From contig JAXMCW010000005.1 of NCBI GenBank assembly GCA_046349155.1, positions 55,822 to 119,821 on the forward strand: a stretch of 64,000 bases of DNA, given 5' to 3'. This DNA comes from Alsobacter sp. GTDB taxonomy: Bacteria; Pseudomonadota; Alphaproteobacteria; Rhizobiales; Beijerinckiaceae. The translations under genes were made by a program, and so were the position numbers. The notes below the pieces were generated by a model. That model had not been told where the DNA came from. It searched no databases and saw nothing but the letters and a program-made list of their open reading frames with translations. This document shows, piece by piece, positions 1-30,725 of the stretch (position 1 is its first letter; each line of letters opens with the position of its first letter).

Positions 1-3000
1 GGATTGGGATCGGACAGCCTCTCGGGTGGAGTGGACGCGGACTACCTGGAGGACACCAACTTCGGCGCGGACACGCTGCTGGGTGGTGGGGGCAACGACA
101 GCCTGTTCGCGTTCCACTCCCTGCCGGGATCCACGATCCTTCTGGACGGCGGAGACGATGACGACAGCATCGGGGCGTGGGGCACCTATGCGCAGGCCGT
201 TCTGAAGGGGGGAGCCGGCCAGGACAGCTTTGACGTCGAGGCGACGGGGGTGATGACGTCGCTGCTGGTCGACGGCGGCACGGGCAATGACTACCTGGCC
301 GTGAACATGAATGGCGGCGCCGCAACGCTCCTGGGCGGCGACAACAACGACACCGTGCGCTTCTACTACAGCTCCGGAGCCGTCGACATTGATGGCGGCG
401 AAGGCAACGACGTCATCAACATGGAGCTGTCGAGCACCACCGGGAAGGTGGCCGGCGGCACCGGGAACGACGCCTTGAACTTCGCGCAGGGAGGCGCGGG
501 GACGGCCGACGGTGGCACGGGTGACGACACGTTCGACATCAATTCGAGCACGATCGGGCAGCTGCTTGCCGGCAGCGGGGCCGACACGATCACGCTGAGC
601 GGGTCCAGCAGCGTGGCGGGGATCGATCTTGGCGCTGATCTTGTCGTCGACCGCGTCGTGGTGAATGCGCTGACTGGCTCCACCACCATCAGCAACTTTA
701 CGGCCGGCCCCGCCGGGGACGTCCTCGACCTGGGGACCTACATCAGCGGCCTCTTCCCGGCATGGGACGGCAACGTGAACCCCTGGGGTTCGTCGGGCTT
801 CCTGCGCCTGGTTCAGAACGGCTCCGACACGCAGATCCAGGTCGATCGGGACGGCGCGGCAGGAGGCAGCTTCAACTTCTCCACCCTTGTCACCCTGCAG
901 GGCGTCACCGCGGCAAGTCTGGATGTCGCCAACATTCCCTCGCGTGGATATCTCGTCTCGTCCAACAGCCAAGGTGGCAACAACATTCTTCTTTTCGAAG
1001 CTGGAGCCTTGCCAATTGGTGCCGGGACATCCGGAATAGATAATGTCGTGTTCGATGGTGTTGGTACGGTCACGCTCCCTGCAACAATCGAGAATATTAC
1101 TTTGACGGGTGTCGCCCCCTCGGGAGCGACGGGGAATAGTTCGGACAATGTCCTTACGGGCAATAGTGGAGACAATACACTCTACGCTCAGGATGGAAAC
1201 GACACGGTCATTGCAGGACAAGGCAACGACAGTCTCGTCGCCGGAGGCGGACAAGGTGATGATCAATACGATGGCGGTCTCGGAATTGACGTCATCGCGT
1301 TTCGGAGCACAACGCTTGGAGTACTCGTAAACCTGTCCACAGGGACGGCAATAGGCCCGGAGATCGGCAACGACACCATCACGGGGGTTGAGAATGTCAT
1401 TGGGGGAGACGGCGCCGACACCATCATTGGAGACTGGCAAGGCAACCGTCTTGAGGGCGGACTGGGGTCAGATTTCATCAACGGCGGCGCTGGCGCCGAT
1501 ACGCTGGTCGGCGGAGCTGGAAACGACACTTACGTCGTCAGCGATCCCGGTGACAAAATTATCGAACTTTCGGGGGAAGGAAAAGACAGTGTCCAGTCTT
1601 CGCTGACGATTACCCTTGGAGCGAACATTGAGAACCTGACGCTGACGGGTGCCGACAGCATCAACGGGACCGGCAATAGCCTCGACAACGTGCTGGTGGG
1701 CAACGGGGCGGCCAATCGCCTGACGGGGAATGACGGGGCCGACACGCTGGATGGAGGCCTGGGCGCCGACACACTGATCGGCGGGCTGGGCAATGACACC
1801 TTCGTGGTGGACGACGCAGGAGACGCCGTCTTCGAGAGCGCCGGCGAGGGCATCGACACCATCTTCTCCTCGATCACGAAGACACTGGGGTCGACGGTTG
1901 AGAACCTCGTGCTGACGGGTGTCCTTGGGATCAACGGGACCGGGAATGCATCCGACAACGTCCTGACGGGCAACGAGGCCGGCAATGCCCTGAACGGGGC
2001 TGGGGGCAACGACACGCTCGACGGGGCGGGCGGCAACGACGTTCTGATCGGAGGCACGGGCGCTGACAGCCTGTCGGGTGGAACGGGCACGGACACGGCC
2101 TCCTACGCCACGGCCGCGACGGGCGTGTTCGCGAGCCTGGCCGCACCGAACCTGAACACGGGCGACGCGCTGGGCGACAGCTACCTGTCGATCGAGAACC
2201 TGCTGGGCTCGGGCCAGGTCGACACGCTGGTGGGCGACGTGAACGCCAACCGCCTGGATGGCGGCGTGGGCGCCGACAGCCTGGTGGGCGGCGGGGGCGA
2301 CGACGTCTATGTCGTCGACAACAGCGGCGACCGGGTGCTGGAGAGCTCTGCGGCGGGCGGGCTCGACACGGTGATTGCCTCCGTTCAGGTGACGCTGTCC
2401 GGCAACGTTGAGAACCTGACACTGGTGCAGGGCTTCAGCATCAACGGGACGGGCAATGGGCTGGATAACCTGATCACGGGCAACGACCAGGCCAACGTGC
2501 TGAACGGGCTGGTCGGGAATGACACGCTGGTGGGGGGCGTTGGCAATGACCAGCTGATCGGCGGGGCTGGTGCCGACAGCCTGGTGGGGGGCAGCGGAAC
2601 GCTGGATCTTGCCTCCTACTCGACCTCGACCCTTGCGGGCGGGCTGGTGGCGAACCTGGCGGACGCGCTGCAGAACACGGGCGATGCGCTGGGCGACCGC
2701 TACTCGGGCGTGGAGGGCCTGATCGGATCGGGTTTTGCGGACACGCTGACGGGGGATGGCGGCTCGAACCGTCTGTCTGGCGGGGCCGGCAACGACGTGA
2801 TCGATGGCGGCGTGGGCGCCGACACGATGCTGGGGGGCGCGGGCGACGACACGTTCACGGTCGACAATGCGAGCGACGGGGTGTTCGAGAACGCGGGCGA
2901 GGGCCTGGATACGGTGTTCTCGTCGGTGAAGTACACGCTGAGCGCGAACGTGGAGAACCTCGTGCTGACGGGCAGCGCCGGGATCAACGCGAACGGCAAT

Positions 3001-17209: not shown

Positions 17210-20035
17210 ATGGGTACGTACATTGGCACGACCGGCGACGATACAACTCTTCTGGATGTGACCGGAAGAACTTGGGATAGTGCTCAGATCAACTATATCA
17301 ACTACAGCCCTGGTGCTACGTCAACATCGGCCGACAACATGGCTTTGGTTGACATTACCGATTCATACTACTGGGACACGACCAATTCGGGGATCGGATA
17401 TCCGGCTAAATTTCAAGGTCAGGAGCATCCTGGGTATGATTACTTGGCCGGAAACGGCGGAAACGACATCCTGTTTAACTACAATTTCAAGAACTTCGGC
17501 TCCACGGCGCACTTGGTCAATTTCGATGGTGGCGAAGGGGACGATTCTATCTGGCTCTACGACAAATTTAACCAGAGTTACATGGTTGCCCAGGGGGGCA
17601 CGGGCAACGACGAAATCTACGGCGGAACATCTTCTTATGCCGAAACAATGGATGGCGGTTCCGGAAATGACTACATCGTTGGTGCATTCGCAGCGCCGGT
17701 TGATGGCCCGGACAGCATCATGGGAGGCGATGACTCCGATCACATCGAAGGCATGGGTGGTAACGACACAATAGATGGCGGAAGCGGAGATGATGGCTTC
17801 ACTCTTATCACCTTCGGTGCGCCGTCTCGTTCAGGCACGGCGTATGCCGGACTTTACGGTGGAGATGGCAATGACGAGATCCATGGAGGCGACGGAAACG
17901 ATTTTGTAGACGGCGGACCAGACAACGATCTGGTGTTCGGCGATGCTGGCAAAGACTCTCTGCAAGGCGGAGACGGCAACGATTATGTCGACGGCGGTCT
18001 AGATAACGACACCGTCTCCGGAGGAAACGGAGACGATTGGGTCGTCGACAATGACGGGGCTAATTCGCTCTCTGGAGATGCCGGCAACGACTACTTCCCC
18101 ATCGGTCCCGGTGCAAACACGATCGATGGAGGCTCGGACATCGACACGATTTCCTACTTGGCTACGTCCGGCGTCGTCGTGGATCTGCAAGGGACGATCC
18201 CGAACGGGTTGGATGCTGCCGGGGAGGTCATCGTATCTGTCGAAAATCTATACGGGTCCGATGTCGCGGATACGTTGATGGGAGACCTCAACGACAACGA
18301 GCTACGTGGGCGCCTCGGCAATGACAGCCTTTCGGGGCGTGGCGGAAACGACCTCATCGTGGACTGGCGATATGACCCTGACGACTTGACGGATGGGGGG
18401 TCGGACACACTGGATGGCGGTGCCGGTGCTGACACGCTTATGGGCGGCAACGGCAACGACGTGCTAATTGGCGGGGCTGGCGCCGACCAGTTGAACGGCG
18501 GCAACAACGTCGACCGCGCTTCCTACTCCACAGCTCAAGTCGGCGTCATTGCGAGTCTAGCACAGCCCGGCCTCAATACCGGTGACGCTGCGGGCGACAC
18601 CTATTTCTCAATCGAGAATCTGCAGGGATCTGGCCAGGTCGACACGTTGGCAGGCGACGACGGCGACAATCGGCTTGACGGCGGACTCGGCGCGGACAGC
18701 CTGGCTGGAGGTGGGGGCAATGACATCTATGTCGTGGAGAATAGCTTCGATCGAGTGATCGAAGGCTTGAACGCGGGCATCGACACGATCATTTCGTCGG
18801 TGACCCTGACGCTAGGCGCCAACGTGGAGAACCTGACGCTGGTGCCGGCCTTCAGCATCAACGGCACGGGCAACGGGCTCGACAATATCATCACGGGGAA
18901 TGACCAAGTCAACGTGCTGAACGGCCAGGCCGGGAACGACACGCTGATTGGCGGGGTAGGCAACGACCAGCTCGTGGGCGGGGCGGGCGCCGATAGCCTC
19001 GTGGGCGGCTCTGGCGTGCAAGATTTGGCCTCCTACTCCACATCCACCCTGGCGGGCGGGATCGTGGTAAGCCTCACCAATCCCAGTTCGAATACCGGTG
19101 ACGCGCTGGGCGACAACTACTCGGGAGTGGAAGGCCTGATCGGGTCGTCCTTCGCTGACACGCTGACGGGCACTGGGGGGGCGAATCGGCTGCAGGGTGG
19201 GGCCGGGAACGACGTGATCGACGGCCTGGCCGGCGCGGACACGATGTTGGGTGGGCAGGGCGACGACACGTTCTATGTCGACAACACCAGCGACGGAGTG
19301 TTCGAGAACGCAGGCGAGGGCGTCGACACCGTCTACTCCTCCGTGAAGTACACGTTGAGCTCCAACGTCGACAATTTGCTGTTGACGGGTACGGCCGGCA
19401 TTAATGCCAACGGCAATACGCTTGACAACAAGATGAGGGGCAACGACCAGGCGAACGCGCTCAACGGACTTGTCGGCAACGACACGCTGGACGGGGCGGG
19501 CGGCAACGACGTGCTGATCGGGGGCGTGGGCGCCGACAGCCTGTCGGGCGGAGCGGGTACAGACACGGCCTCCTACTCCACCGCAGCTACGGGCGTGGTG
19601 GTGGACCTCGCCAACATCGCGCTCAACACGGGCGACGCCTTGGGTGACGCCTACCTGTCGATCGAGAAGATCGCGGGCTCCGGGCAGAACGACCGGCTCT
19701 CAGGCGATGGTACGGCCAACGACCTCAACGGGGCGGGCGGGGCGGACACGCTGGACGGGGGACTGGGCAACGACACGCTGGCGGGCGGTACGGGGGGAGA
19801 CCTCTTCGTGTTCGCGTCGGGCTACGGCAAGGACGCGATCACGGATTTCGTGGCAGCGGACGACACGGTGCGGTTGACTGGCCTGTCTGGCGTATTCGCC
19901 GACGGTGCGGCGGCCTACGCGGCGAGCGTGCAGGTCGGCAATGACGTTGTGCTCACCCTCGACGCCACCAACAGCCTCACCTTCAAGAACATCCTCAAGT
20001 CCGCACTCTCGGCAGCCGACTTCAGCGTGACGTGA
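17210..20035 (+). CDS. RTX repeat protein (941 aa) with a low-GC N-terminal head and a diverged copy of the shared C-terminal tail
   Basis: Contains nonapeptide repeats. The tail from about 18.4 kb is roughly 80% identical in aa to the cassette. The last ~100 aa are nearly identical (GGTGGDLFVFASGYGKDAITDFVAADDTV...ALSAADFSVT). Confidence 0.9.
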   Translation: MGTYIGTTGDDTTLLDVTGRTWDSAQINYINYSPGATSTSADNMALVDITDSYYWDTTNSGIGYPAKFQGQEHPGYDYLAGNGGNDILFNYNFKNFGSTAHLVNFDGGEGDDSIWLYDKFNQSYMVAQGGTGNDEIYGGTSSYAETMDGGSGNDYIVGAFAAPVDGPDSIMGGDDSDHIEGMGGNDTIDGGSGDDGFTLITFGAPSRSGTAYAGLYGGDGNDEIHGGDGNDFVDGGPDNDLVFGDAGKDSLQGGDGNDYVDGGLDNDTVSGGNGDDWVVDNDGANSLSGDAGNDYFPIGPGANTIDGGSDIDTISYLATSGVVVDLQGTIPNGLDAAGEVIVSVENLYGSDVADTLMGDLNDNELRGRLGNDSLSGRGGNDLIVDWRYDPDDLTDGGSDTLDGGAGADTLMGGNGNDVLIGGAGADQLNGGNNVDRASYSTAQVGVIASLAQPGLNTGDAAGDTYFSIENLQGSGQVDTLAGDDGDNRLDGGLGADSLAGGGGNDIYVVENSFDRVIEGLNAGIDTIISSVTLTLGANVENLTLVPAFSINGTGNGLDNIITGNDQVNVLNGQAGNDTLIGGVGNDQLVGGAGADSLVGGSGVQDLASYSTSTLAGGIVVSLTNPSSNTGDALGDNYSGVEGLIGSSFADTLTGTGGANRLQGGAGNDVIDGLAGADTMLGGQGDDTFYVDNTSDGVFENAGEGVDTVYSSVKYTLSSNVDNLLLTGTAGINANGNTLDNKMRGNDQANALNGLVGNDTLDGAGGNDVLIGGVGADSLSGGAGTDTASYSTAATGVVVDLANIALNTGDALGDAYLSIEKIAGSGQNDRLSGDGTANDLNGAGGADTLDGGLGNDTLAGGTGGDLFVFASGYGKDAITDFVAADDTVRLTGLSGVFADGAAAYAASVQVGNDVVLTLDATNSLTFKNILKSALSAADFSVT

Positions 20036-20291
20036 GAAATCCCCCTTGCTGGGACGCCGGAGGTTGGCCTCGTCGCCCACCGCAAGAGACGTACCTTCTT
20101 GCGCGACATGATACTGGCCGAGTTCAGCGTCCCTATCTTATGAAAACCTATCAAGCTATGTTTAGATTGGTCTCCGTCGTTGCGGGGGATCGCGTCTAGA
20201 CTCGCAACATCGCCAGGCCGTCGATAATATTGCCCTCGTCTCAAAATTCTTTCGGCTGAAGCATAGCGTTTTCTTCCAGCGGGGACAGGCC

Positions 20292-23200
20292 ATGCCGGTG
20301 GTGACCGATTACTCTGCCCTTATTAGTGGTAGTGCTTGGGGCGGTATCGAAGTGATCGGCAAGCCGGTCATCGTCACCTATTCATTCCCAACGGTTGCCA
20401 GCGACTATCTTGCTTCGGTCGACGGATTCACCTCGGCAACTGTCAGCAGTTTTCAGGCCTTTAGTGCCAGCGAGCAGGCCCAGGCTCGGACAGCTCTTGC
20501 CGAATGGGCCGCGGCCAGCGGCCTCACCTTCATTGAGGTGGCGCCTGGCCATGGCGATATCAACTTCCAGATCGTGGATTTCAACACGACATCCAGCCCG
20601 TCCTATTCAAGCTATGGCGGCGTCGCGTTTTATCCATTTGGAGACTGGAACTACTTCACCTACCCGTCGTTTTCTGGCGACCTCGACGCCTCCGGCGACG
20701 TGTTCATGAATTCGCAGCTCGCCTCGGGGGAAACGGTCTCCTACGGCACGCTCCTGCACGAGATCGGCCACGCTATCGGCCTGAAGCATCCGACTGAGGT
20801 TGTCACCAACTACGCGGCAAACCCCATCGTTGTTCATGACCAGGTCCTCTCGAGCGATGACCCGACAAGGACGATCATGGCGACGGTCGGCGACAACAGT
20901 GCCACCGGGACGCCGCATCTGCTTCCTCTCGACGTGGCCGCGGCCGCCTATCTTTACGGCGCGGCAGGCCAAGGCGGTGTCTACACGACAAGCGCGACCG
21001 GTTCGAATTCAAGTGTCTCTGCGTGGTCCTGGGATGCGGTCACGCAGATCCTGTCACAGACGGGGACGGCTGCAGATGATGCTATGCGGGGCACTTCGGT
21101 AGCAGACAGCCTGGACGGCCAAGGTGGCAATAACAGCCTCTTCGGTCTTGCCGGAAACGACACACTCACGTCCGGCGCCGGCAACGACCTCCTGCACGGC
21201 GGCACTGGCGACGATTCCATGAGCGGCGGTGCGGGGGACGACACGTACTTAGTGGATTCCGTGTCCGACGGGATCCTGGAACAGCCCGGCCAGGGCTTCG
21301 ACAGCGTCTTGTCGACGATCAGCACTGTCCTCGCCCCCAATGTGGAACTGCTGCAGCTATTCGGCCAAGGCCTGACAGGCTCCGGGAACGGGCTCGCCAA
21401 TACGATTTTCGGCGATGGAAGCCATGCCGGGTGGCTCCTGGGGTTGGGGAACGACGACTACATGGTCGCGGGATCCGGTGCGGACACGCTCGATGGCGGC
21501 ACCGGCAACGACTCCCTCTACGGAGGTGACGGAAACGACCTGTATGTCGTGGATTCTGTCTTCGATCTGGTGGGTGAGCCGAGCACCGATGGCAGCGGCA
21601 TCGATACGATCCTTTCGTCCGTAAGCCTGGTCCTTCCGGGCTCGGTCGAGAACCTGACGCTGACGGGTGCCGACAGCATCAACGGGACCGGCAATGGCCT
21701 CGACAACGTGCTGGTGGGCAACGGGGCGGCCAATCGCCTGACGGGGAATGACGGGGCCGACACGCTGGATGGAGGCCTGGGCGCCGACACACTGATCGGC
21801 GGGCTGGGCAATGACACCTTCGTGGTGGACGACGCAGGAGACGCCGTCTTCGAGAGCGCCGGCGAGGGCATCGACACCATCTTCTCCTCGATCACGAAGA
21901 CACTGGGGTCGACGGTTGAGAACCTCGTGCTGACGGGTGTCCTTGGGATCAACGGGACCGGGAATGCATCCGACAACGTCCTGACGGGCAACGAGGCCGG
22001 CAATGCCCTGAACGGGGCTGGGGGCAACGACACGCTCGACGGGGCGGGCGGCAACGACGTTCTGATCGGAGGCACGGGCGCTGACAGCCTGTCGGGTGGA
22101 ACGGGCACGGACACGGCCTCCTACGCCACGGCCGCGACGGGCGTGTTCGCGAGCCTGGCCGCACCGAACCTGAACACGGGCGACGCGCTGGGCGACAGCT
22201 ACCTGTCGATCGAGAACCTGCTGGGCTCGGGCCAGGTCGACACGCTGGTGGGCGACGTGAACGCCAACCGCCTGGATGGCGGCGTGGGCGCCGACAGCCT
22301 GGTGGGCGGCGGGGGCGACGACGTCTATGTCGTCGACAACAGCGGCGACCGGGTGCTGGAGAGCTCTGCGGCGGGCGGGCTCGACACGGTGATTGCCTCC
22401 GTTCAGGTGACGCTGTCCGGCAACGTTGAGAACCTGACACTGGTGCAGGGCTTCAGCATCAACGGGACGGGCAATGGGCTGGATAACCTGATCACGGGCA
22501 ACGACCAGGCCAACGTGCTGAACGGGCTGGTCGGGAATGACACGCTGGTGGGGGGCGTTGGCAATGACCAGCTGATCGGCGGGGCTGGTGCCGACAGCCT
22601 GGTGGGGGGCAGCGGAACGCTGGATCTTGCCTCCTACTCGACCTCGACCCTTGCGGGCGGGCTGGTGGCGAACCTGGCGGACGCGCTGCAGAACACGGGC
22701 GATGCGCTGGGCGACCGCTACTCGGGCGTGGAGGGCCTGATCGGATCGGGTTTTGCGGACACGCTGACGGGGGATGGCGGCTCGAACCGTCTGTCTGGCG
22801 GGGCCGGCAACGACGTGATCGATGGCGGCGTGGGCGCCGACACGATGCTGGGGGGCGCGGGCGACGACACGTTCACGGTCGACAATGCGAGCGACGGGGT
22901 GTTCGAGAACGCGGGCGAGGGCCTGGATACGGTGTTCTCGTCGGTGAAGTACACGCTGAGCGCGAACGTGGAGAACCTCGTGCTGACGGGCAGCGCCGGG
23001 ATCAACGCGAACGGCAATGCGCTGGGCAACGTGATCACGGGCAACGACACGGCGAACGCGCTGAACGGGCTGGACGGGGCGGACACGCTGAACGGGGCGG
23101 GCGGCAACGACGTGCTGATCGGCGGCGTGGGGGCGGACCTTCTGGACGGAGGCCTGGGGACGGACACGGCGTCCTATTCGACGGCGCTGACGGGCGTGAC

Positions 23201-23636
23201 GGTGAACCTCGGGGCGATGGGGCTGAACACCGGGGACGCGCAGGGCGACCAGTACATCTCGATCGAGAAGGTGCTGGGGTCTGGACTGGGTGACCAGCTG
23301 ACGGGCGACGCCAATGCCAACAACTTCAACGGGTCTGGCGGGGCGGACACGCTGGACGGGGGGCTTGGCAACGACACGCTGGCGGGCGGCACGGGGGGAG
23401 ACCTCTTCGTGTTTGCATCGGGCTACGGCAAGGACGCGATCACGGACTTCGTGGCGGCGGACGACACGGTGCAACTGACCGGGCTGTCGGGCGTGTTCGC
23501 GGACGGGGCTGCGGCCTATACGGCCAGCGTGCAGATCGGCAACGACGTCGTGCTCACCCTCGACGCCGCCAACAGCCTCACCTTCAAGAACATCCTGAAG
23601 ACCGCACTCTCCGCAGCTGACTTCAGCGTGAGTTGA
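20292..23636 (+). CDS. Serralysin-like (M10B metzincin) metalloprotease fused to the shared RTX tail (1114 aa)
   Basis: TYSFP... start, HEIGHAIGLKH (HExxHxxGxxH, nt ~20757-20789), Met-turn-like TIMAT, LPLDVAAAAYLYG. Followed by RTX repeats and cassette copy C. Confidence 0.9.
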   Translation: MPVVTDYSALISGSAWGGIEVIGKPVIVTYSFPTVASDYLASVDGFTSATVSSFQAFSASEQAQARTALAEWAAASGLTFIEVAPGHGDINFQIVDFNTTSSPSYSSYGGVAFYPFGDWNYFTYPSFSGDLDASGDVFMNSQLASGETVSYGTLLHEIGHAIGLKHPTEVVTNYAANPIVVHDQVLSSDDPTRTIMATVGDNSATGTPHLLPLDVAAAAYLYGAAGQGGVYTTSATGSNSSVSAWSWDAVTQILSQTGTAADDAMRGTSVADSLDGQGGNNSLFGLAGNDTLTSGAGNDLLHGGTGDDSMSGGAGDDTYLVDSVSDGILEQPGQGFDSVLSTISTVLAPNVELLQLFGQGLTGSGNGLANTIFGDGSHAGWLLGLGNDDYMVAGSGADTLDGGTGNDSLYGGDGNDLYVVDSVFDLVGEPSTDGSGIDTILSSVSLVLPGSVENLTLTGADSINGTGNGLDNVLVGNGAANRLTGNDGADTLDGGLGADTLIGGLGNDTFVVDDAGDAVFESAGEGIDTIFSSITKTLGSTVENLVLTGVLGINGTGNASDNVLTGNEAGNALNGAGGNDTLDGAGGNDVLIGGTGADSLSGGTGTDTASYATAATGVFASLAAPNLNTGDALGDSYLSIENLLGSGQVDTLVGDVNANRLDGGVGADSLVGGGGDDVYVVDNSGDRVLESSAAGGLDTVIASVQVTLSGNVENLTLVQGFSINGTGNGLDNLITGNDQANVLNGLVGNDTLVGGVGNDQLIGGAGADSLVGGSGTLDLASYSTSTLAGGLVANLADALQNTGDALGDRYSGVEGLIGSGFADTLTGDGGSNRLSGGAGNDVIDGGVGADTMLGGAGDDTFTVDNASDGVFENAGEGLDTVFSSVKYTLSANVENLVLTGSAGINANGNALGNVITGNDTANALNGLDGADTLNGAGGNDVLIGGVGADLLDGGLGTDTASYSTALTGVTVNLGAMGLNTGDAQGDQYISIEKVLGSGLGDQLTGDANANNFNGSGGADTLDGGLGNDTLAGGTGGDLFVFASGYGKDAITDFVAADDTVQLTGLSGVFADGAAAYTASVQIGNDVVLTLDAANSLTFKNILKTALSAADFSVS
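21648..23636. repeat. 1,989-bp RTX C-terminal cassette, copy C
   Basis: Offset is exactly 20018 bp from copy A. Sense and antisense ORF translations are identical over about 1.4 kb (e.g. 1931..2422 vs 21949..22440). Differences cluster at both ends of the cassette. Confidence 0.95.
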
Positions 23637-23812
23637 GAGCCGGACTGCCCGATTGCGATGACCTGGCTGGAGTGAGCTTGAGGTCCTGATTGGCGGGAAA
23701 ACGGATCGCCGTTAACCATAGGCCCAAGTCCAAAGGCGCACTCACCGAAGAACATTGACTCGCGAGGAGGAAGGTTCATCTTAGTTAATGTGGAGTTAAA
23801 ATTTAGCTTACG

Positions 23813-25597
23813 ATGGACCCGAAACGCCCCACTTCGATCCGCGAAAATGGGCTGCGGCTGCTGCGCCTCCTCGATGGCTGCTACGTCGCATTGGGCGTCG
23901 TTTTCCTTCTGAGTGCAGCGGTCAATCTGCTTTATCTCACAAGCTCCATCTACATGATGGAAATCTACGACCGCATCATCCCGAGCCGCAGCATCGCGAC
24001 ACTCGTCTCCTTGACGGTCATCGTGTTCGTGATGTTTGCCTTCCAGGGGCTCTTCGACGTTCTTCGCAGCCGCGTCCTGGCAAGGGTGGGTGGCGTGGTC
24101 GACGAACGTTTGTCGCGCCAGGTGTTCGCTCTGGTTCAGCGTACACCGCGTCAAGGCATGGACGACGGCCTTTCGCCGATCCGGGACGTCGATCAGGTTC
24201 GATCCTTCTTTGTTGGCGGAGGACCGAGTTCATTTCTGGACCTGCCTTGGATTCCTTTTTATCTCGTCCTCTGTTTTGCATTTCATCCACTTGTCGGCCT
24301 TGTGTCGCTCCTGGGCTCCCTGTGCCTTTTCGGGCTGACGCTCCTGACAGACCTCGTGTCACGCGAACCCGCGGCAAAGACCGGCAAAGCCGCATCCTTG
24401 AGGATGGGTTTGGCAGCCTCTGCGCGCCGCAATGTGGAGGTAGTCCAGGCCATGGGCATGGAAGCCGCGCTGGCCAACCGATGGACAAAGACAAGCTCGC
24501 TCTACACATCCTTGCAGATGGGCGTCACTGACGCCGCCGTGAATTTCAGCGGCCTGTCCCGCGTTATTCGACTCTCGCTCCAGTCAGGCGTGATGGGGAT
24601 TGGTGCTGTCCTCGTCATGGCTGGCGAAACGTCCAGCGGCATCATCATTGCGTCCTCGATCCTGGCCGCTCGCGCGCTCGCGCCGGTCGAATCCCTGATT
24701 GCCCACTGGAAAAGCTTCCTCGCCTTCCGCACATCCTGGGCGAGGCTGTGTTCCGCGTTTGACGAACTGGGCGTGTCTGCCGACGTCCTTGATCTGCCGC
24801 TTCCCCGCAAGGCCATCGAGGTGCAAGGCGTCCAGGCCCGTCCCCCAGGATCCCCGAACATCGTTGTTCGCGACGTGTCCTTCACACTGAATGCCGGTCA
24901 AGGCCTTGGCATCATCGGCCCGAGTGGTTCCGGCAAGTCATCCTTGGCGCGTGTCCTGGTGGGAGTGTGGCCAACTTTTCGAGGAAAGGTCTGCCTCGAC
25001 GGGGCTGCGCTCGACCAGTGGAGCAGAAATCGGCTCGGTCCCGGAATCGGCTACATTCCTCAGGACGTGGAGTTGTTTGCTGGAACGGTTGCTGAAAACA
25101 TCGCTCGGTTCGAGCCCAATCCTTCAACCGAAGCCGTGCTGAAGGCTGCTCAGTCAGCCGGTGTCCACGATCTGATCCTCACGCTGCCGAAAGGTTACAT
25201 GACGGCGATCGGTGAGGGTGGAGAAGCCTTGTCGGGGGGGCAGCGACAAAGACTCGCCCTCGCAAGAGCTCTCTACAAGGATCCCTTCCTTCTTGTGCTC
25301 GACGAACCAAATTCGAACTTGGACTCGGAAGGCGAGGCTGCACTGACCCAGGCTCTTCTGACTGTCCGTGAGCGGGGAGGCATCGTGATCGTGGTGGCAC
25401 ATCGTGCAAGCGCGCTGGCGGCCGTCGATCAAGTCCTCGCTCTTGCGGAGGGGCGAGCAGTCGCACTTGGCCCCAAGGATGAGATCCTTCGCCAGGTGTT
25501 GAGGGCTGAGAACCAGCCGGCCCAGCGCGGCGGCGGACCATCCACGCCGGCTAACTTGCATGCGCCGCAACCCGCAATGAGCGGGAGTCGATCGTGA
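23813..25597 (+). CDS. Type I secretion system permease/ATPase (PrtD/AprD/HasD class, no C39 domain)
   Basis: 594 aa. N-terminal TM domain, Walker A GPSGSGKSS, signature LSGGQRQRLALARA, Walker B LLVLDEP. Confidence 0.9.
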   Translation: MDPKRPTSIRENGLRLLRLLDGCYVALGVVFLLSAAVNLLYLTSSIYMMEIYDRIIPSRSIATLVSLTVIVFVMFAFQGLFDVLRSRVLARVGGVVDERLSRQVFALVQRTPRQGMDDGLSPIRDVDQVRSFFVGGGPSSFLDLPWIPFYLVLCFAFHPLVGLVSLLGSLCLFGLTLLTDLVSREPAAKTGKAASLRMGLAASARRNVEVVQAMGMEAALANRWTKTSSLYTSLQMGVTDAAVNFSGLSRVIRLSLQSGVMGIGAVLVMAGETSSGIIIASSILAARALAPVESLIAHWKSFLAFRTSWARLCSAFDELGVSADVLDLPLPRKAIEVQGVQARPPGSPNIVVRDVSFTLNAGQGLGIIGPSGSGKSSLARVLVGVWPTFRGKVCLDGAALDQWSRNRLGPGIGYIPQDVELFAGTVAENIARFEPNPSTEAVLKAAQSAGVHDLILTLPKGYMTAIGEGGEALSGGQRQRLALARALYKDPFLLVLDEPNSNLDSEGEAALTQALLTVRERGGIVIVVAHRASALAAVDQVLALAEGRAVALGPKDEILRQVLRAENQPAQRGGGPSTPANLHAPQPAMSGSRS

Positions 25598-26940
25598 CAG
25601 CCTTTTCGAACGCGCTCGACCTGCTGAAACCGGCAAGGCTCACGGGAGACAGCCTCAGCAAATCCCTTCAGCGCCATCTCCACTTGTCACTCTTTTCGTT
25701 TGTCGTGTTGTTCTGCGGCTTTCTCCTCTGGGCTGGGATGAGCGACATTGCCGGCGCGGTCATCGCAAGCGGACAACTCGTTGTCGAGAGCAACGTCAAG
25801 AAGATCCAGCACCCCAATGGCGGGGTAATCGCAGAGGTCAAGGTTAGGGACGGTGACCGCGTCCGCGCCGGCGACCTGCTCATTCGTCTCGACGAGACAG
25901 TGGCGCGTGCAAATCTTGCAATCGTTGAGGGGAACCTTCAGCAGCTTTCGATCCGTTTGGCTCGGCTTGAAGCTGAACGCGATGGCGACGTGCAATTGAA
26001 ATGGCCAGATATCTTGGCCCCCCGATCCACTGACCCAGGGGTTGTCCATCTTGTGGAGAGTGAGCAAAACCTGCTCACTCTCAGAATCGAGGCACGCGCT
26101 GGACAGAAATCGCAGCTCGACGAACGTCGTCGACAGCTGGAAGACGAGATCGTCGGCCTTACCGGTCAGCTAAGCGCCAAAGAGACTGAAGTAGAACTCA
26201 TCAACAAGGAACTTGTGAGCGTCAAGGCTCTCTATCGCAAGAACCTCGTTTCACTTCAGCGGGTCAATATGCTCGAGCGCGACACCGCGCGCTTGCTCGG
26301 AGAAAAGTCAGCACTGCAGGCAGCCATCGCACAGACAAAAGGCAAGATCAGTGAGATCAATCTCCAGAAGATCCAAATCGATCAAGACAATCGAAGCGAC
26401 GTGGTGAAGGAAATCCGGGAAACTCAATCAAAGGTCGCAGAACTCCTCGAGCGACAAATTGCTTCGCGCGATTTCTTGAGCCGGGTTGAGATGCGGGCGC
26501 CTCAGGATGGAGTTGTCCACCAGCTAGCCGTCCATACAATTGGCGGCGTCGTTGGAGCTGGCGATACTCTCTTGCAAGTCGTGCCGGAAAACGACGAACT
26601 GCGTGTTGAGGCTCGCATCGCACCACATGATATCGACTCAGTCCGTAAAGGACAGCCAGTCAATATCCGCCTGACAGCTTTCAGCCAGCGAGTGACCCCC
26701 GAAGTGCCTGGCGAGGTGTTATTCGTTTCGCCGGACCTCATTATTGATCCGAAGACGGGACTGTCATTTTACGCTGTCACAATCTCAATGAAGTTACGGG
26801 ATAATCCGGACACGAAATCGCTGCGTGTCGTTCCTGGCATGCCTGTTGAGGCCTTCATACAGACCAATCCCCGGACCGTGCTCAGTTATCTCCTGAAACC
26901 CATCTCTGACCAGTTGCGGCGAGCATTCAGGGAGCGGTAA
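25594..26940 (+). CDS. HlyD-family type I secretion membrane fusion (adaptor) protein
   Basis: 448 aa. Single N-terminal TM, long coiled-coil middle, barrel-sandwich motifs (IQHPNGGVIAEVKVRDGDRVRAGDLLIRLDE). GTGA overlap with the ABC gene stop. Confidence 0.9.
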   Translation: MTAFSNALDLLKPARLTGDSLSKSLQRHLHLSLFSFVVLFCGFLLWAGMSDIAGAVIASGQLVVESNVKKIQHPNGGVIAEVKVRDGDRVRAGDLLIRLDETVARANLAIVEGNLQQLSIRLARLEAERDGDVQLKWPDILAPRSTDPGVVHLVESEQNLLTLRIEARAGQKSQLDERRRQLEDEIVGLTGQLSAKETEVELINKELVSVKALYRKNLVSLQRVNMLERDTARLLGEKSALQAAIAQTKGKISEINLQKIQIDQDNRSDVVKEIRETQSKVAELLERQIASRDFLSRVEMRAPQDGVVHQLAVHTIGGVVGAGDTLLQVVPENDELRVEARIAPHDIDSVRKGQPVNIRLTAFSQRVTPEVPGEVLFVSPDLIIDPKTGLSFYAVTISMKLRDNPDTKSLRVVPGMPVEAFIQTNPRTVLSYLLKPISDQLRRAFRER

Positions 26941-27334
26941 GTCGGTCAGCCGAAATCCTGCCGCCGTCAGATGCCAAAAAGGCGTCCGATCGAATTTCAA
27001 GACGTATCTCAATCTTATTGCTCGTTCGAAAAAAGCCGAATAACACAAGGCATGTTGTAAGAATTTCGAGATCGGAGAGACATCAGGAATGAATTATCTT
27101 CCGCCTTAGCGACGACGAAAGCCGAGGACTCTTGCCAAAAAGACCGATAGGTACGTCACGACACCAATGGAAATTGATCTCAGATCGGAGTGTATTCAGG
27201 TTGCCGTGCGTCTTATTCGTAAAGTCTATGCTATTTGACAATCAGTCATTGATTACGGTTGTTTGAAAAGTTGACGATTGAGCATGTTTGGATTGTTGGC
27301 GATGAGGCGTGCACAATTGGAGTGCGGCCGATAC

Positions 27335-28102
27335 TTACTCGATCAGGGCATTTACGTAGGCATCCATAAATGGATTAATTTCGAAAGAGAGAGAGAAGCC
27401 AAAGCGGGGATTGATTTCAAATAGCCAGTAATTCCCATTTGAATATTTGAGATCAATACAACAGACGCCGGTGTACTGTAGGGCGGCTACAATATCTTTC
27501 ATCAGAGACAGCAGTTCATCATTTTCGACAAAATTGGTGCTTGTTGGTACGACCGGTCCTTTTACAACCTGATCAGAGGGCATGATATAATGTGCTATCC
27601 GATGGAATGCGACGTGTCCGTCTTTGCAAAGGAGATGGACTGCGTACTCCTCTGAGCCAGTCACGATGTCCTGAAAGATGAGATCCTGGGCCATTGATAT
27701 CCCGCGCTCCAGGGCCTCCTCGGGTGTTTTTATGATCCATGTGCCCTGGCCACTTTCGCTCCTGCGGCTTTTCGCAACGTATGGATAGTCGACGGGAACT
27801 TGCGTCGTATACTCTGGAACCAGAAACTTAAATCCACGTGCCACAAGAAAGTCGTTTAACGTCTTCTTGTCGTCGCACATTGCGGTAGTATCACGAGAAG
27901 GGATGAGAAATGTCTTTCTCTCAAGAGTTGTATCGTCCCAAAGCGGATTGTAGTCCGTGATTCGGAGCGGAACTATTGCGTCGTATTCGCCAAGATTGTG
28001 GACGCGCAACGAGCCGAAATCAGCAAAGTAACGGGCCCCATCAAGCCTTAATCTGATTTGGCGTTCAAAATCTGGGTGATCGCCGAATCGGATCTTCGTC
28101 AT
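27335..28102 (-). CDS. Small ATP-grasp domain protein (paralog 1, low GC)
   Basis: 255 aa with CDDKKTLNDFL, EEYAVHLL, LFEINPRFG motifs typical of the ATP-grasp fold. About 38% aa identity by eye to 29922..30725. Confidence 0.7.
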   Translation of the reverse strand: MTKIRFGDHPDFERQIRLRLDGARYFADFGSLRVHNLGEYDAIVPLRITDYNPLWDDTTLERKTFLIPSRDTTAMCDDKKTLNDFLVARGFKFLVPEYTTQVPVDYPYVAKSRRSESGQGTWIIKTPEEALERGISMAQDLIFQDIVTGSEEYAVHLLCKDGHVAFHRIAHYIMPSDQVVKGPVVPTSTNFVENDELLSLMKDIVAALQYTGVCCIDLKYSNGNYWLFEINPRFGFSLSFEINPFMDAYVNALIE

Positions 28103-28302
28103 CTGCGTAACCTTCCAAGGGAGTCTTACAAATTAGACCCGCGCTGTGAAATGCAACCACGCATTGCAGCCTTCTTCAAGTCTATTTGGTATCGTAATGG
28201 GGAGGAACAGGCAACAAATCGCATGCGGAGCAGTGCCTTTTGCGCACTTGTATCTCCTCTAAGCGGGGTCAAGCTTTCAAGTATTTCACTTGAAACTTCG
28301 CC

Positions 28303-29607
28303 TCACCCCCGTCCGACGCTGACATAGGTAAACCCGCGCTTTCGCATGTCGTCGGGCCTGTAGATATTGCGGAGGTCGACGACGACGGGGGCCTTGAGGC
28401 CGCGCTGGATGCGGCCGAGGTCGAGGGCGCGGAAGGCGTCCCACTCGGTGACGATGACCAGCGCGTCGGCGCCCTCGGCGCAGGCATAGGCGTTGTCGGC
28501 GAAGGTGACGTCGGGCAGCAGGCCGCGCGCATGGCCCATGCTCTCGGGATCGTAGGCGCGCACGCTCGCGCCGGCGTCCTGCAGCGCGGTGGCGATGGCG
28601 AGGGAGGGCGCGTCGCGCATGTCGTCGGTATTCGGCTTGAAGGCGAGGCCGAGCAGCGCGATCGTCTTGCCGCGCACCGAGCCGCCGCAGGCCGCGATCA
28701 CCTTGCGCGCCATGGCGCGCTTGCGCGTGTCGTTGACCGCGACGACGGTCTCCACGATGCGCAGCGGCGTGCCCGCGTCCTGCGCCGTCTTGGCGAGCGC
28801 CTGCGTGTCCTTGGGGAAGCAGGAGCCGCCATAGCCGGGCCCGGCATGCAGGAACTTGCCGCCGATGCGGTTGTCGAGGCCGATGCCGCGGGCGACCTCC
28901 TGCACGTTGCCGCCCACGGCCTCGCACAGGTCGGCGATCTCGTTGATGAAGGTGATCTTGAGCGCCAGGAAGGCGTTGGCGGCGTACTTGATGAGCTCGG
29001 AGGTGCGCCGGTCGGTGAACAGGATCGGCGGCTGGTTGAGGAAGAGCGGGCGGTAGATCTCGGTCATCACCTCGCGGGCGCGCGGCTCCACCGTGCCCAC
29101 GACGATGCGGTCGGGGCGCTTGAAGTCGGCGATGGCGGCGCCCTCGCGCAGGAACTCGGGGTTGGAGACCACGGCATAGTCGCCGTCGGGCCTCGTCTCG
29201 CGCAGGATGCGCTCCACCTCGTCGCCGGTGCCCACGGGCACGGTGGACTTGGTGATGACGACGAGCGGCCCGGCGCTCGCCTCGGCGATCTCGCGGGCCA
29301 CGGCATGGACGTAGGAGAGGTCGGCATGGCCGTCGCCGCGCCGCGAGGGCGTTCCCACGGCGATGAACACGGCCTCCGCGCCCGCGAGCCCCTCGCGGAT
29401 GTCGGTGGTGAAGGTGAGCCGTCCCTGCTCGGCGTTGTTGTCGACGAGTTCCTTCAGCCCCGGCTCGTAGATCGGCATCTCGCCGCGCCGCAAGGCCGCG
29501 ATCTTGCGCTCGTCCTTGTCCACGCAAAGCACGCGGTGGCCGAAGTCAGCCAGGCAGGCCCCCGACACCAGGCCCACATAGCCCGAACCGATCATCGCAA
29601 TGTGCAT
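28303..29607 (-). CDS. ugd: UDP-glucose 6-dehydrogenase
   Basis: Start chosen at MHIAMIGSGYVGLVSGACLA (GxGxxG). GGSCFPKD catalytic Cys region. 434 aa. The ORF-track upstream extension to 29781 was rejected. Confidence 0.9.
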   Translation of the reverse strand: MHIAMIGSGYVGLVSGACLADFGHRVLCVDKDERKIAALRRGEMPIYEPGLKELVDNNAEQGRLTFTTDIREGLAGAEAVFIAVGTPSRRGDGHADLSYVHAVAREIAEASAGPLVVITKSTVPVGTGDEVERILRETRPDGDYAVVSNPEFLREGAAIADFKRPDRIVVGTVEPRAREVMTEIYRPLFLNQPPILFTDRRTSELIKYAANAFLALKITFINEIADLCEAVGGNVQEVARGIGLDNRIGGKFLHAGPGYGGSCFPKDTQALAKTAQDAGTPLRIVETVVAVNDTRKRAMARKVIAACGGSVRGKTIALLGLAFKPNTDDMRDAPSLAIATALQDAGASVRAYDPESMGHARGLLPDVTFADNAYACAEGADALVIVTEWDAFRALDLGRIQRGLKAPVVVDLRNIYRPDDMRKRGFTYVSVGRG

Positions 29608-29921
29608 CAGCGATTGCTCCGCAAACGGAAAGCCCTGAATCCAGCTTAGCGATCCATAAGGCCATTCACGTTCCGGGCCAACGCGTCTTCCATCGAATCC
29701 TGACGTTGCGGCTCGACTTGGATCAAAACTCTCGCCCGTCTCTGCATTCGCGTTGAGGGCGCGGCGCAAATCGCAACGCATAGCGTCAATTTCGCAAGTG
29801 CGCGTGAGGCAGGAACCGGCGTGAGCTGAACCTTCAATGTTAGGCCAGGTGCCTACATTGAGAGTTCGTCATATAAATTTATGGATGCGGCCGAATTTGA
29901 GTCGGGCAGGCGAACACGCTC

Positions 29922-30725
29922 ATGGGGGAAACACGAGTGCCGCCAGGAAGCCGCAGGCTTAAGGTTCGCTTCGGGGAACATCCCGACTTCATGGCAGCTA
30001 TCCTCGAGACGCTTGCTCAGGATCGGTTTGAGCCGCTGGCCGGCCCTATCGCAGCCCGCGAGGCGCTCAATGTTTCTGCTGTCCTGCCTCTTCGGATCTC
30101 GGACTATGACGCGCTCTATCAACGGCCCGACCTGCAGGGGCGTAAGCTCTGGTTGCCGGACCGAGACATCGTCAGGTTATGTGACGACAAGCTCAAAATG
30201 AACGACTTCCTCAGGGCCAAGAGCTTCACCGCAATCGTGCCCGAGCACTCCACCCAGTCGCTGGGCGTCTATCCTGTGATCGTCAAAAAGGTCCATGACG
30301 AGAACGGCGAGAACTCCTTCGTGGCCTTCGATAAAGCCGAGGAGGAGGCCATCATCCGCAAGTTCGCCGGGGGGGCGTTCTTCGTCCAACGCTTCGTGAC
30401 GGGAAGGGATGAGTATGCGGTCCACGTTTTGGCGGTGGAGGGAGAGGCCTATTTTGTCAAGGCGATCCGGCACGTGATGGCCGGCGACCACTGCGTCAAG
30501 GGTGCACGCAACATCCCCGAGAGGTCCGAGGCTACACGTTTGCCCAAGGGCGGCGAGATCATCTTCGATATCCTGCGGATACTGCGCTACACGGGCGTAT
30601 GTTGCGTCAATCTCAAGGGCAGCGAGAGGGACATGAAGCTGCTCGAGATCAATCCCCGGTTTGGCTACTCACTGTGCCGGCACATCAACGAGTTCCTGGA
30701 CGCCTACATCGATTCGTTTGCATGA
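29922..30725 (+). CDS. Small ATP-grasp domain protein (paralog 2, higher GC)
   Basis: 267 aa with VRFGEHPDF, CDDKLKMNDFL, DEYAVHVL, LLEINPRFG. Divergently transcribed from ugd. Confidence 0.7.
   Translation: MGETRVPPGSRRLKVRFGEHPDFMAAILETLAQDRFEPLAGPIAAREALNVSAVLPLRISDYDALYQRPDLQGRKLWLPDRDIVRLCDDKLKMNDFLRAKSFTAIVPEHSTQSLGVYPVIVKKVHDENGENSFVAFDKAEEEAIIRKFAGGAFFVQRFVTGRDEYAVHVLAVEGEAYFVKAIRHVMAGDHCVKGARNIPERSEATRLPKGGEIIFDILRILRYTGVCCVNLKGSERDMKLLEINPRFGYSLCRHINEFLDAYIDSFA

Follow-up and report, generated by a model that had tools for sequence, protein, structure and literature searches.

Four RTX Genes and a Type I Transporter at One Locus

The stretch of DNA analysed here (64,000 nucleotides, hereafter the window) comes from a metagenome-assembled genome of Alsobacter sp. 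(Hyphomicrobiales), a soil bacterium, in which the locus lies on a contig of 404,466 nt. Its plus strand carries four paralogous RTX genes in the order A, B, D and C, followed by the genes of a PrtD-type ATP-binding cassette (ABC) transporter, which stands directly downstream of gene C, and of an HlyD-family adaptor (Table 1). Genes A, B and C end in nearly the same 2-kb sequence, which we call the cassette and whose copies are labelled after their genes; gene D ends in a diverged version of this tail. The parts of the genes upstream of the tails are referred to as heads.

All four RTX proteins match PF00353 (E = 1.4e-49 to 1.1e-96, 12-23 stretches per protein), and a motif scan finds 22-36 strict nonapeptides (GGxGxDxUx) in each. 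Proteins B, D and C are each the sole member of their own 90% cluster. The 5′ end of gene A lies outside the window: bases 1-6 read GGA TTG in frame and the head is incomplete. The TTG start at position 4 given in the list of open reading frames (ORFs) was discarded as an artefact of that list, since the reading frame continues upstream of the window. The ABC protein has no N-terminal peptidase domain.

Table 1. Coordinates of the RTX genes, their tails and associated features in the window
Feature	Position	Strand	Evidence or remark
Gene A, RTX protein, at least 1,204 aa	1..3618	+	PF00353 E = 1.4e-49, 12 stretches
Cassette copy A, 662 aa + stop	1630..3618	+	Pairwise alignment
Copy A, unit U1	1630-1899	+	
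Copy A, unit U2	1900-2409	+	
Copy A, unit U3	2410-2952	+	
Copy A, unit U4 and C-terminal secretion region (putative)	2953-3615	+	
Stretch identical in A and C, in copy A (cassette positions 49-1506, 1,458 nt)	1679..3136	+	0 differences
Gene B, RTX protein, 1,729 aa	3745..8934	+	MFO1151159.1, “calcium-binding protein”
Cassette copy B	6946..8934	+	39 private sites, 27 silent, spread across first 1.5 kb
IS630-type transposase, two ORFs (helix-turn-helix 9696-10109, DDE_3 9103-9669)	9103..10109	-	DDE_3 E = 2.8e-31
Gene D, RTX protein, 941 aa, low-GC head	17210..20035	+	MFO1151168.1
Gene D tail, counterpart of cassette residues 175-662	18572..20035	+	80% aa (392/488), 78.6% nt
Gene C, RTX protein with serralysin-like head, 1,114 aa	20292..23636	+	MFO1151169.1
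Cassette copy C	21648..23636	+	20 private sites, 19 in last 480 nt including 9 in last 40 nt
Stretch identical in A and C, in copy C (1,458 nt)	21697..23154	+	Identical to copy A
Type I secretion ABC permease/ATPase, PrtD type	23813..25597	+	TIGR01842 661.5 bits, cutoff 510
HlyD-family type I secretion periplasmic adaptor	25594..26940	+	TIGR01843 383.7 bits, cutoff 208.65

A Common 2-kb Cassette Closes Genes A, B and C

A block of 1,989 nt closes genes A, B and C, and its three copies align without a single gap, at the coordinates that the original prediction, made by reading the window, had assigned to three tails of ~662 aa. That prediction had described an abrupt start at a repeat-unit boundary and an end at the stop codon. 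Indeed, in all three genes the 5′ edge lies no more than 3 nt from GAGAACCTG / GAGAACCTGACG, which encodes ENLTLTG, and the 3′ edge is the stop codon. Over the 150 nt upstream of the cassettes, in-register identity is 29-55%; the flanks on the other side cannot be aligned, and there is no further copy within the 64-kb window. Identity of this degree is not due to chance, since other RTX units of the same genes are only about 72-75% DNA-identical to the cassette.

Copies A and C differ at 25 sites (98.9% identity), A and B at 44 (97.8%) and B and C at 59 (97.2%). At the protein level, about eight differences had been predicted between A and C, near the two ends, and about eight scattered ones in B. 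We count exactly eight in both cases: between A and C, one lies near the 5′ end and seven in the last quarter, and those between B and A are scattered. The “about 1.4 kb” in which A and C had been said to show no substitution measures 1,458 nt.

Variants Along the Cassette Form a Mosaic

Pairwise nucleotide alignment of the tails, which had been proposed as a check, showed that divergence is distributed unevenly along the cassette. Between A and C there is 1 difference in the first 1,507 positions and there are 24 in the last 482; for A and B the corresponding counts are 37 and 7. Within the 1,458 nt in which A and C are identical, B departs from both at 36 sites. Among the first 38 sites private to B or C, 37 are private to B, while C accounts for 19 of the 21 such sites beyond position 1507 (2 × 2 table [[37,1],[2,19]], Fisher p = 2.9e-12), and a run-length permutation test of the site pattern gave p <= 5e-5. 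Thus, A is closest to C in the first 1.5 kb and to B in the last 0.48 kb, and one tree is insufficient to describe the cassette, a result that depends on the variants having been phased correctly in the assembly.

Most of the changes are silent. The A-C stretch of 1,458 nt contains no difference at silent sites, and the majority of the changes private to B are synonymous (Table 1). When segments and copies are ranked by divergence, levels of 0.07%, 1.5%, 2.5%, 4-5% and ~21% are obtained, and this gradation shows several ages of homogenisation.

The tail of gene D had been described as an older version, with ~80% amino acid identity, that lacks the first sub-repeat. The alignment bears this out (Table 1): nothing in gene D can be aligned to the first ~360 nt of the cassette, the first ~170 codons are missing, and the tail is an older paralogue of cassette residues 175-662. 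Silent changes affect 36-48% of the codons conserved between D and the cassette but only 25-27% in the last ~125 codons (window positions 19750-20035), and the last ~280 nt of the tail are 83-93% identical to the cassette at the nucleotide level. The better match of the 3′ end may be a trace of an older exchange that involved only the secretion-signal end, or of a constraint at the DNA level.

The Tail Is a Predicted Calcium-Binding and Secretion Module

The cassette consists of four units (residues 1-90, 91-260, 261-441 and 442-662), each of which opens with ENL(T/V)L. Within the last unit, residues 504-660 are similar to ~150 aa at the C-termini of Erwinia protease C and a Pseudomonas lipase; the corresponding structure matches are residues 300-465 of 479 in 1k7i and 502-611 of 617 in 2z8x, with E about 2e-7. 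Both of these proteins are exported via PrtD-type systems by means of a C-terminal signal. Proteins A, B and C all end in ...AADFSV(T/S). Because of the four RTX units and the alignment to the C-termini of protease C and the lipase, we predict that the cassette is a calcium-binding beta-roll followed by a putative uncleaved C-terminal secretion-signal module of the serralysin/lipase type. The RTX and C-terminal homology agrees with the view, expressed in the original prediction, that one common calcium-binding and secretion tail is carried by different heads.

The Heads Differ in Kind but Are Related Near the Cassette

A recognisable enzyme domain was found in the head of gene C only; the heads of A, B and D contain only RTX-type repeats of other subtypes. 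The catalytic domain of C (aa 14-225, nt 20331-20966) is similar to residues 44-249 of 1SRP (E = 9e-20) and carries the zinc motif HEIGHAIGLKH (HExxHxxGxxH) at aa 156-166. The head scores 25.6 bits with PF00413 (cutoff 24) and the protein 205 bits with the NCBIfam serralysin model NF035945, under the cutoff of 500. Gene C is thus predicted to encode a serralysin-like metzincin outside the curated serralysin subfamily. Relatives of its head form a well-populated family (55-70% identity, 550-880 aa) with other, shorter tails and different C-termini, and since they carry other tails, the head is separable from the tail.

The head of gene B is an array of ~90-100-aa DxWGNxD / GGxGxD modules, and that of gene A combines RTX-like repeats with a module of ~85 aa at aa 225-312. 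A weak match of aa 228-309 (window positions 685-939) to TIGR03661, a type I secretion “C-terminal target domain”, suggested that gene A might be an old complete protein to which the tail had been appended. This idea was rejected because, among 1.8 billion representative proteins, the module matched by TIGR03661 mostly lies inside the protein and is present in 2-23 copies. The ~85-aa module is found mostly in very large proteins and has no Pfam description.

The heads had been called unrelated, which overstates the case. RTX-type repeats are present in all four, and the ~180 residues that precede the cassette are built of the same type of unit in the different genes and are 30-45% identical at the amino acid level.

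Codon Usage Changes at the Cassette Edge

The GC content at third codon positions (GC3) of the cassette is 0.89-0.90, similar to the 0.84-0.90 of ordinary genes elsewhere in the window. Values of 0.49-0.78 are found in the heads of B, D and C, in the middle of A, in the two transporter genes and in a group of genes at 10-17 kb. The original prediction was right that gene D has a low-GC head, and wrong in limiting this property to D. The GC3 step falls at the cassette edge and is accompanied by a change in the choice of individual codons: GAC makes up 0.87-0.89 of aspartate codons in the cassette vs. 0.55-0.62 in the heads, and GGT and GGA together make up 0.11-0.12 of glycine codons vs. 0.27-0.55. 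Since different synonymous codons are used within one gene, A, B and C are chimeric, with heads and tails of different histories. Gene A has a GC3 of 0.85-0.89 at positions 4-903, 0.53-0.73 at 904-1629 and 0.85-0.94 in the cassette, which suggests a three-part mosaic.

GC-biased conversion as the source of the high GC3 of the tail received no support in a weak test with D as the outgroup (26 changes from G or C to A or T, 10 in the opposite direction). The codon step, with a genome-like tail and with heads and transporter genes unlike the genome, is compatible with another scenario: the tail may be resident DNA that was grafted onto imported heads and so would have made horizontally acquired extracellular proteins exportable, after which conversion would keep the module uniform. 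We regard this scenario as speculative and rather improbable.

The Repeat in Independent Short-Read Data

Since the source is a metagenome-assembled genome, the original prediction had warned of an assembly hazard, and the warning was justified: an independent short-read k-mer assembly of run SRR26348422 (Logan) breaks at the repeat and cannot cross the cassette. Two of its contigs come from the locus. One, L080, corresponds to window positions 23567-28332 at 100% identity and begins exactly 30 nt before cassette position 1949, the first site of the 3′-terminal cluster of variants private to copy C. This start is the expected branch point of a de Bruijn graph, provided that the reads contain both tail variants (assuming k = 31, so that k-1 = 30). 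Judged by the break point and the identity of this contig, the repeat is real in the reads and the private 3′ end of C is joined to the ABC gene. The other contig, L081, matches positions 9924-16657 at 100% and stops inside the IS630-type element, as expected for a repeated element. A protein search returned no Logan fragment across a head-cassette junction, and independent support is thus available only for the junction between the tail of C and the ABC gene. If the phasing of variants were wrong, the mosaic could be spurious; the presence of three tails on three heads would stand.

Other Features of the Window

The IS630-type transposase gene adjoins gene B on its downstream side; a simple scan did not find terminal inverted repeats of the element. 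A group of genes with lower GC content (GC 0.54-0.61, GC3 0.56-0.66) occupies positions 10400-16908, between genes B and D, and encodes a short-chain dehydrogenase, a methyltransferase, a radical SAM protein, an aldolase-like protein and two ORFs without a Pfam match. It looks like an insertion that has split an RTX gene cluster. Beyond the transporter genes, two ATP-grasp genes (27335-28102, minus strand, and 29922-30725) lie on either side of a UDP-glucose/GDP-mannose dehydrogenase gene (28303-29781, minus strand); the GC content of the first is only 0.48, that of the genome being ~0.68. Long antisense ORFs run across the cassettes on the minus strand (1468-3651, 6913-8772 and 21357-23474, coding for 727, 619 and 705 aa). 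These ORFs are probably a mere consequence of the GC-rich repeat sequence, and an annotation could mistake them for genes. Scans for promoters and terminators near the RTX genes gave no signal over shuffled expectation.

Comparison with Other Loci and Known Systems

The cassette has no match in plasmids, and only generic RTX similarity (34-54%) was found in GTDB genomes, JGI metagenomes and a set of 5.8 billion proteins. In the collections searched, the best match of the tail is 43-54% and that of the ABC gene 57-58%. Among ~160 other RTX loci, only one, L033, contains a long near-identical block common to two neighbouring genes. In this locus, from a Proteobacteria metagenome-assembled genome, positions 2919-4688 and 6893-8665 (1.77 kb) are 97.5% identical; the block lies near the 3′ end of RTX gene 1989-4823 and is internal to the adjacent RTX gene 5474-14224. 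The remaining matches of the survey, L064 among them, were rejected as similar cases, being repeats within one gene or overlapping tandem copies. The sharing of blocks between RTX paralogues is thus neither universal nor unique.

The FrpC-like and FrpA proteins of Neisseria meningitidis are type I-secreted RTX paralogues with a common RTX and C-terminal part; their differences lie in the number of repeats and in a ~350-aa N-terminal domain (PMC5472700). They resemble the proteins studied here in being RTX paralogues of one genome with a common C-terminal part and a variable N-terminus. What sets the Alsobacter locus apart is a single 24-kb cluster with three copies and an older fourth, heads of different kinds (a protease vs. 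repeat arrays), a common part with exact edges, and a step in codon usage. Concerted evolution has been proposed for Legionella rtxA, where it is intragenic (PMC2257941), and for bacterial multigene families both gene conversion and concerted evolution have been reviewed (Santoyo and Romero 2005, as cited in PMC2257941). Like such families, the cassettes are almost identical at silent sites, show mosaic tracts and end abruptly where homology is lost; in our case, however, the process appears confined to a 3′ secretion module and does not extend to whole genes or to repeats within a gene.

The PrsDE-type system of Rhizobium leguminosarum serves many substrates with one transporter, and in one predicted type I substrate of this organism, as in gene C, a Zn-metalloprotease at the N-terminus precedes a long RTX region (PMC2275737). 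With this system and with PrtDEF of the Erwinia proteases, the locus shares the PrtD-type ABC protein and adaptor and several RTX substrates; unlike them, it has no outer-membrane factor gene seen beside it. We know of no near-identical tails between the substrates of PrsDE or PrtDEF systems.

Polymorphic toxin systems combine a constant trafficking module with variable payloads joined by recombination (PMC3482391). The original prediction had called the present arrangement the inverse of their logic. The polarity is indeed reversed, with the variable part at the N-terminus, because type I secretion signals are C-terminal; the logic itself, a constant carrier with a variable payload, is the same and not inverted. 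No toxin domain was found in the RTX proteins with Pfam and NCBIfam, neither immunity genes nor standalone cassettes were seen, and an immunity gene would hardly fit into the intergenic gaps, which measure 126-256 nt. The locus is not a polymorphic toxin system. In Vibrio MARTX toxins, homologous recombination reshuffles exchangeable effector modules located between conserved repeat regions. There the variation occurs within one gene and between strains, whereas here it is found between separate paralogues of one genome that have only the C-terminal module in common.

Probable Gene Conversion and Its Alternatives

The mosaic pattern, the identity at silent sites and the abrupt edges support the gene conversion between tails that had been proposed originally. 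Our best reading of the locus, to which we assign a probability of roughly 0.7, is that the secretion module evolves in concert because gene conversion takes place among the clustered paralogues. The tails of A, B and C would be kept near-identical by non-reciprocal homologous recombination between copies, and at least two events with different end points would be required. The most recent would have covered cassette positions 49-1506, between A and C, and an older one would tie together the 3′ 480 nt of A and B; D would have escaped homogenisation long ago, save for its somewhat better kept 3′ end. Conversion tracts are expected to stop at the stop codon, beyond which the flanks are unrelated, and at the 5′ unit boundary, where identity drops to about 55% or less, and with the tracts so bounded the heads would stay distinct. 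The 5′ edge common to all copies suggests that it was set by one founding fusion or by one homology limit, conversion then having maintained the module. One tail may be favoured because recognition and calcium-driven folding would thereby stay matched to one transporter.

Several observations weigh against this reading. The three copies have the same 5′ edge to within 3 nt, and independent conversion tracts normally have scattered ends. With the 3′ blocks of A and C exchanged, a simple tree of two recent duplicates plus B would account for the data; the source is metagenome-assembled, and the assignment of variant blocks to copies is taken from the contig alone. No related strain or orthologous locus was found in plasmids, GTDB genomes, JGI metagenomes or the set of 5.8 billion proteins. 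Moreover, export of all four proteins through the adjacent transporter is predicted from sequence, and no TolC-like outer-membrane factor was found among the ORFs of the window scanned with Pfam. Such factors are commonly encoded away from the transporter locus.

One alternative is that recent duplication and fusion were the only events: a tail was copied twice and joined to three heads, its divergence is tree-like, and the mosaic results from mis-phasing or from co-assembled strains. The same 5′ and 3′ edges in all copies, as from one founding module, the chimeric genes revealed by the codon-usage step and the tree-like appearance that swapped 3′ 480-nt blocks of A and C would produce all fit such a history. 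Even after the swap, however, the two “recent” copies remain uneven (0/1458 vs. 5/482 differences), and the five divergence levels, which include the better-kept 3′ end of D, are better explained by repeated events. Duplicated DNA that ends at the stop codon in every copy would also be odd for a segmental duplication, and the private 3′ end of C is linked to the ABC gene in the independent contig. We therefore consider this history unlikely, and infer that the mosaic arose by recombination in the cell and not by mis-phasing in the assembly. An outright artefact, in which repeat collapse, chimeric paths or cross-copy polishing created the near-identity or the head-tail joins, appears somewhat less probable still. 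It would suit a metagenome-assembled genome and the failure of the k-mer assembly of the same sample across the repeat; yet there are three distinct tail variants with mostly silent differences and no frameshifts, three intact genes could not do without a tail and a stop codon each, one 404-kb contig passes through all three copies, and the Logan assembly breaks where a true branch is expected and matches the unique regions at 100%.

The original prediction had also allowed for cassette exchange with exchangeable heads, and this part finds no backing: no alternative head-tail pair, silent cassette or recombinase site was found. A dedicated system in which site-specific or programmed recombination at the ENLTLTG boundary transfers heads to a standard tail could explain why the common junction is so precise and falls at a motif recurring at each unit boundary, and the IS630-type element beside gene B might be taken to point the same way. 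We nevertheless hold it to be very improbable, as no recombinase, inverted or direct site repeats at the edges or promoterless silent cassettes were found, all four genes have their own start codon, and the survey of ~160 other RTX loci yielded one partly similar case. Lastly, strong purifying selection on the secretion and folding module alone, without recombination, would account for the extreme C-terminus being the best conserved part, even in D. Selection at the protein level cannot explain the identity, since most changes are silent and D is silently changed at 36-48% of conserved codons; with A and C identical at silent sites over 1,458 nt, this explanation is in effect refuted.

Implications for Type I Secretion Substrates

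The understanding of type I secretion and of gene conversion is unchanged by this locus, which is a clean example of a known process and not a new type of system. Its uses lie in the annotation of the RTX family, in the engineering of secretion tags and as a warning for the metagenome assembly of such loci. For the family itself, it shows that within one gene cluster the functional head of type I substrates and their secretion and folding module can evolve as separate units.

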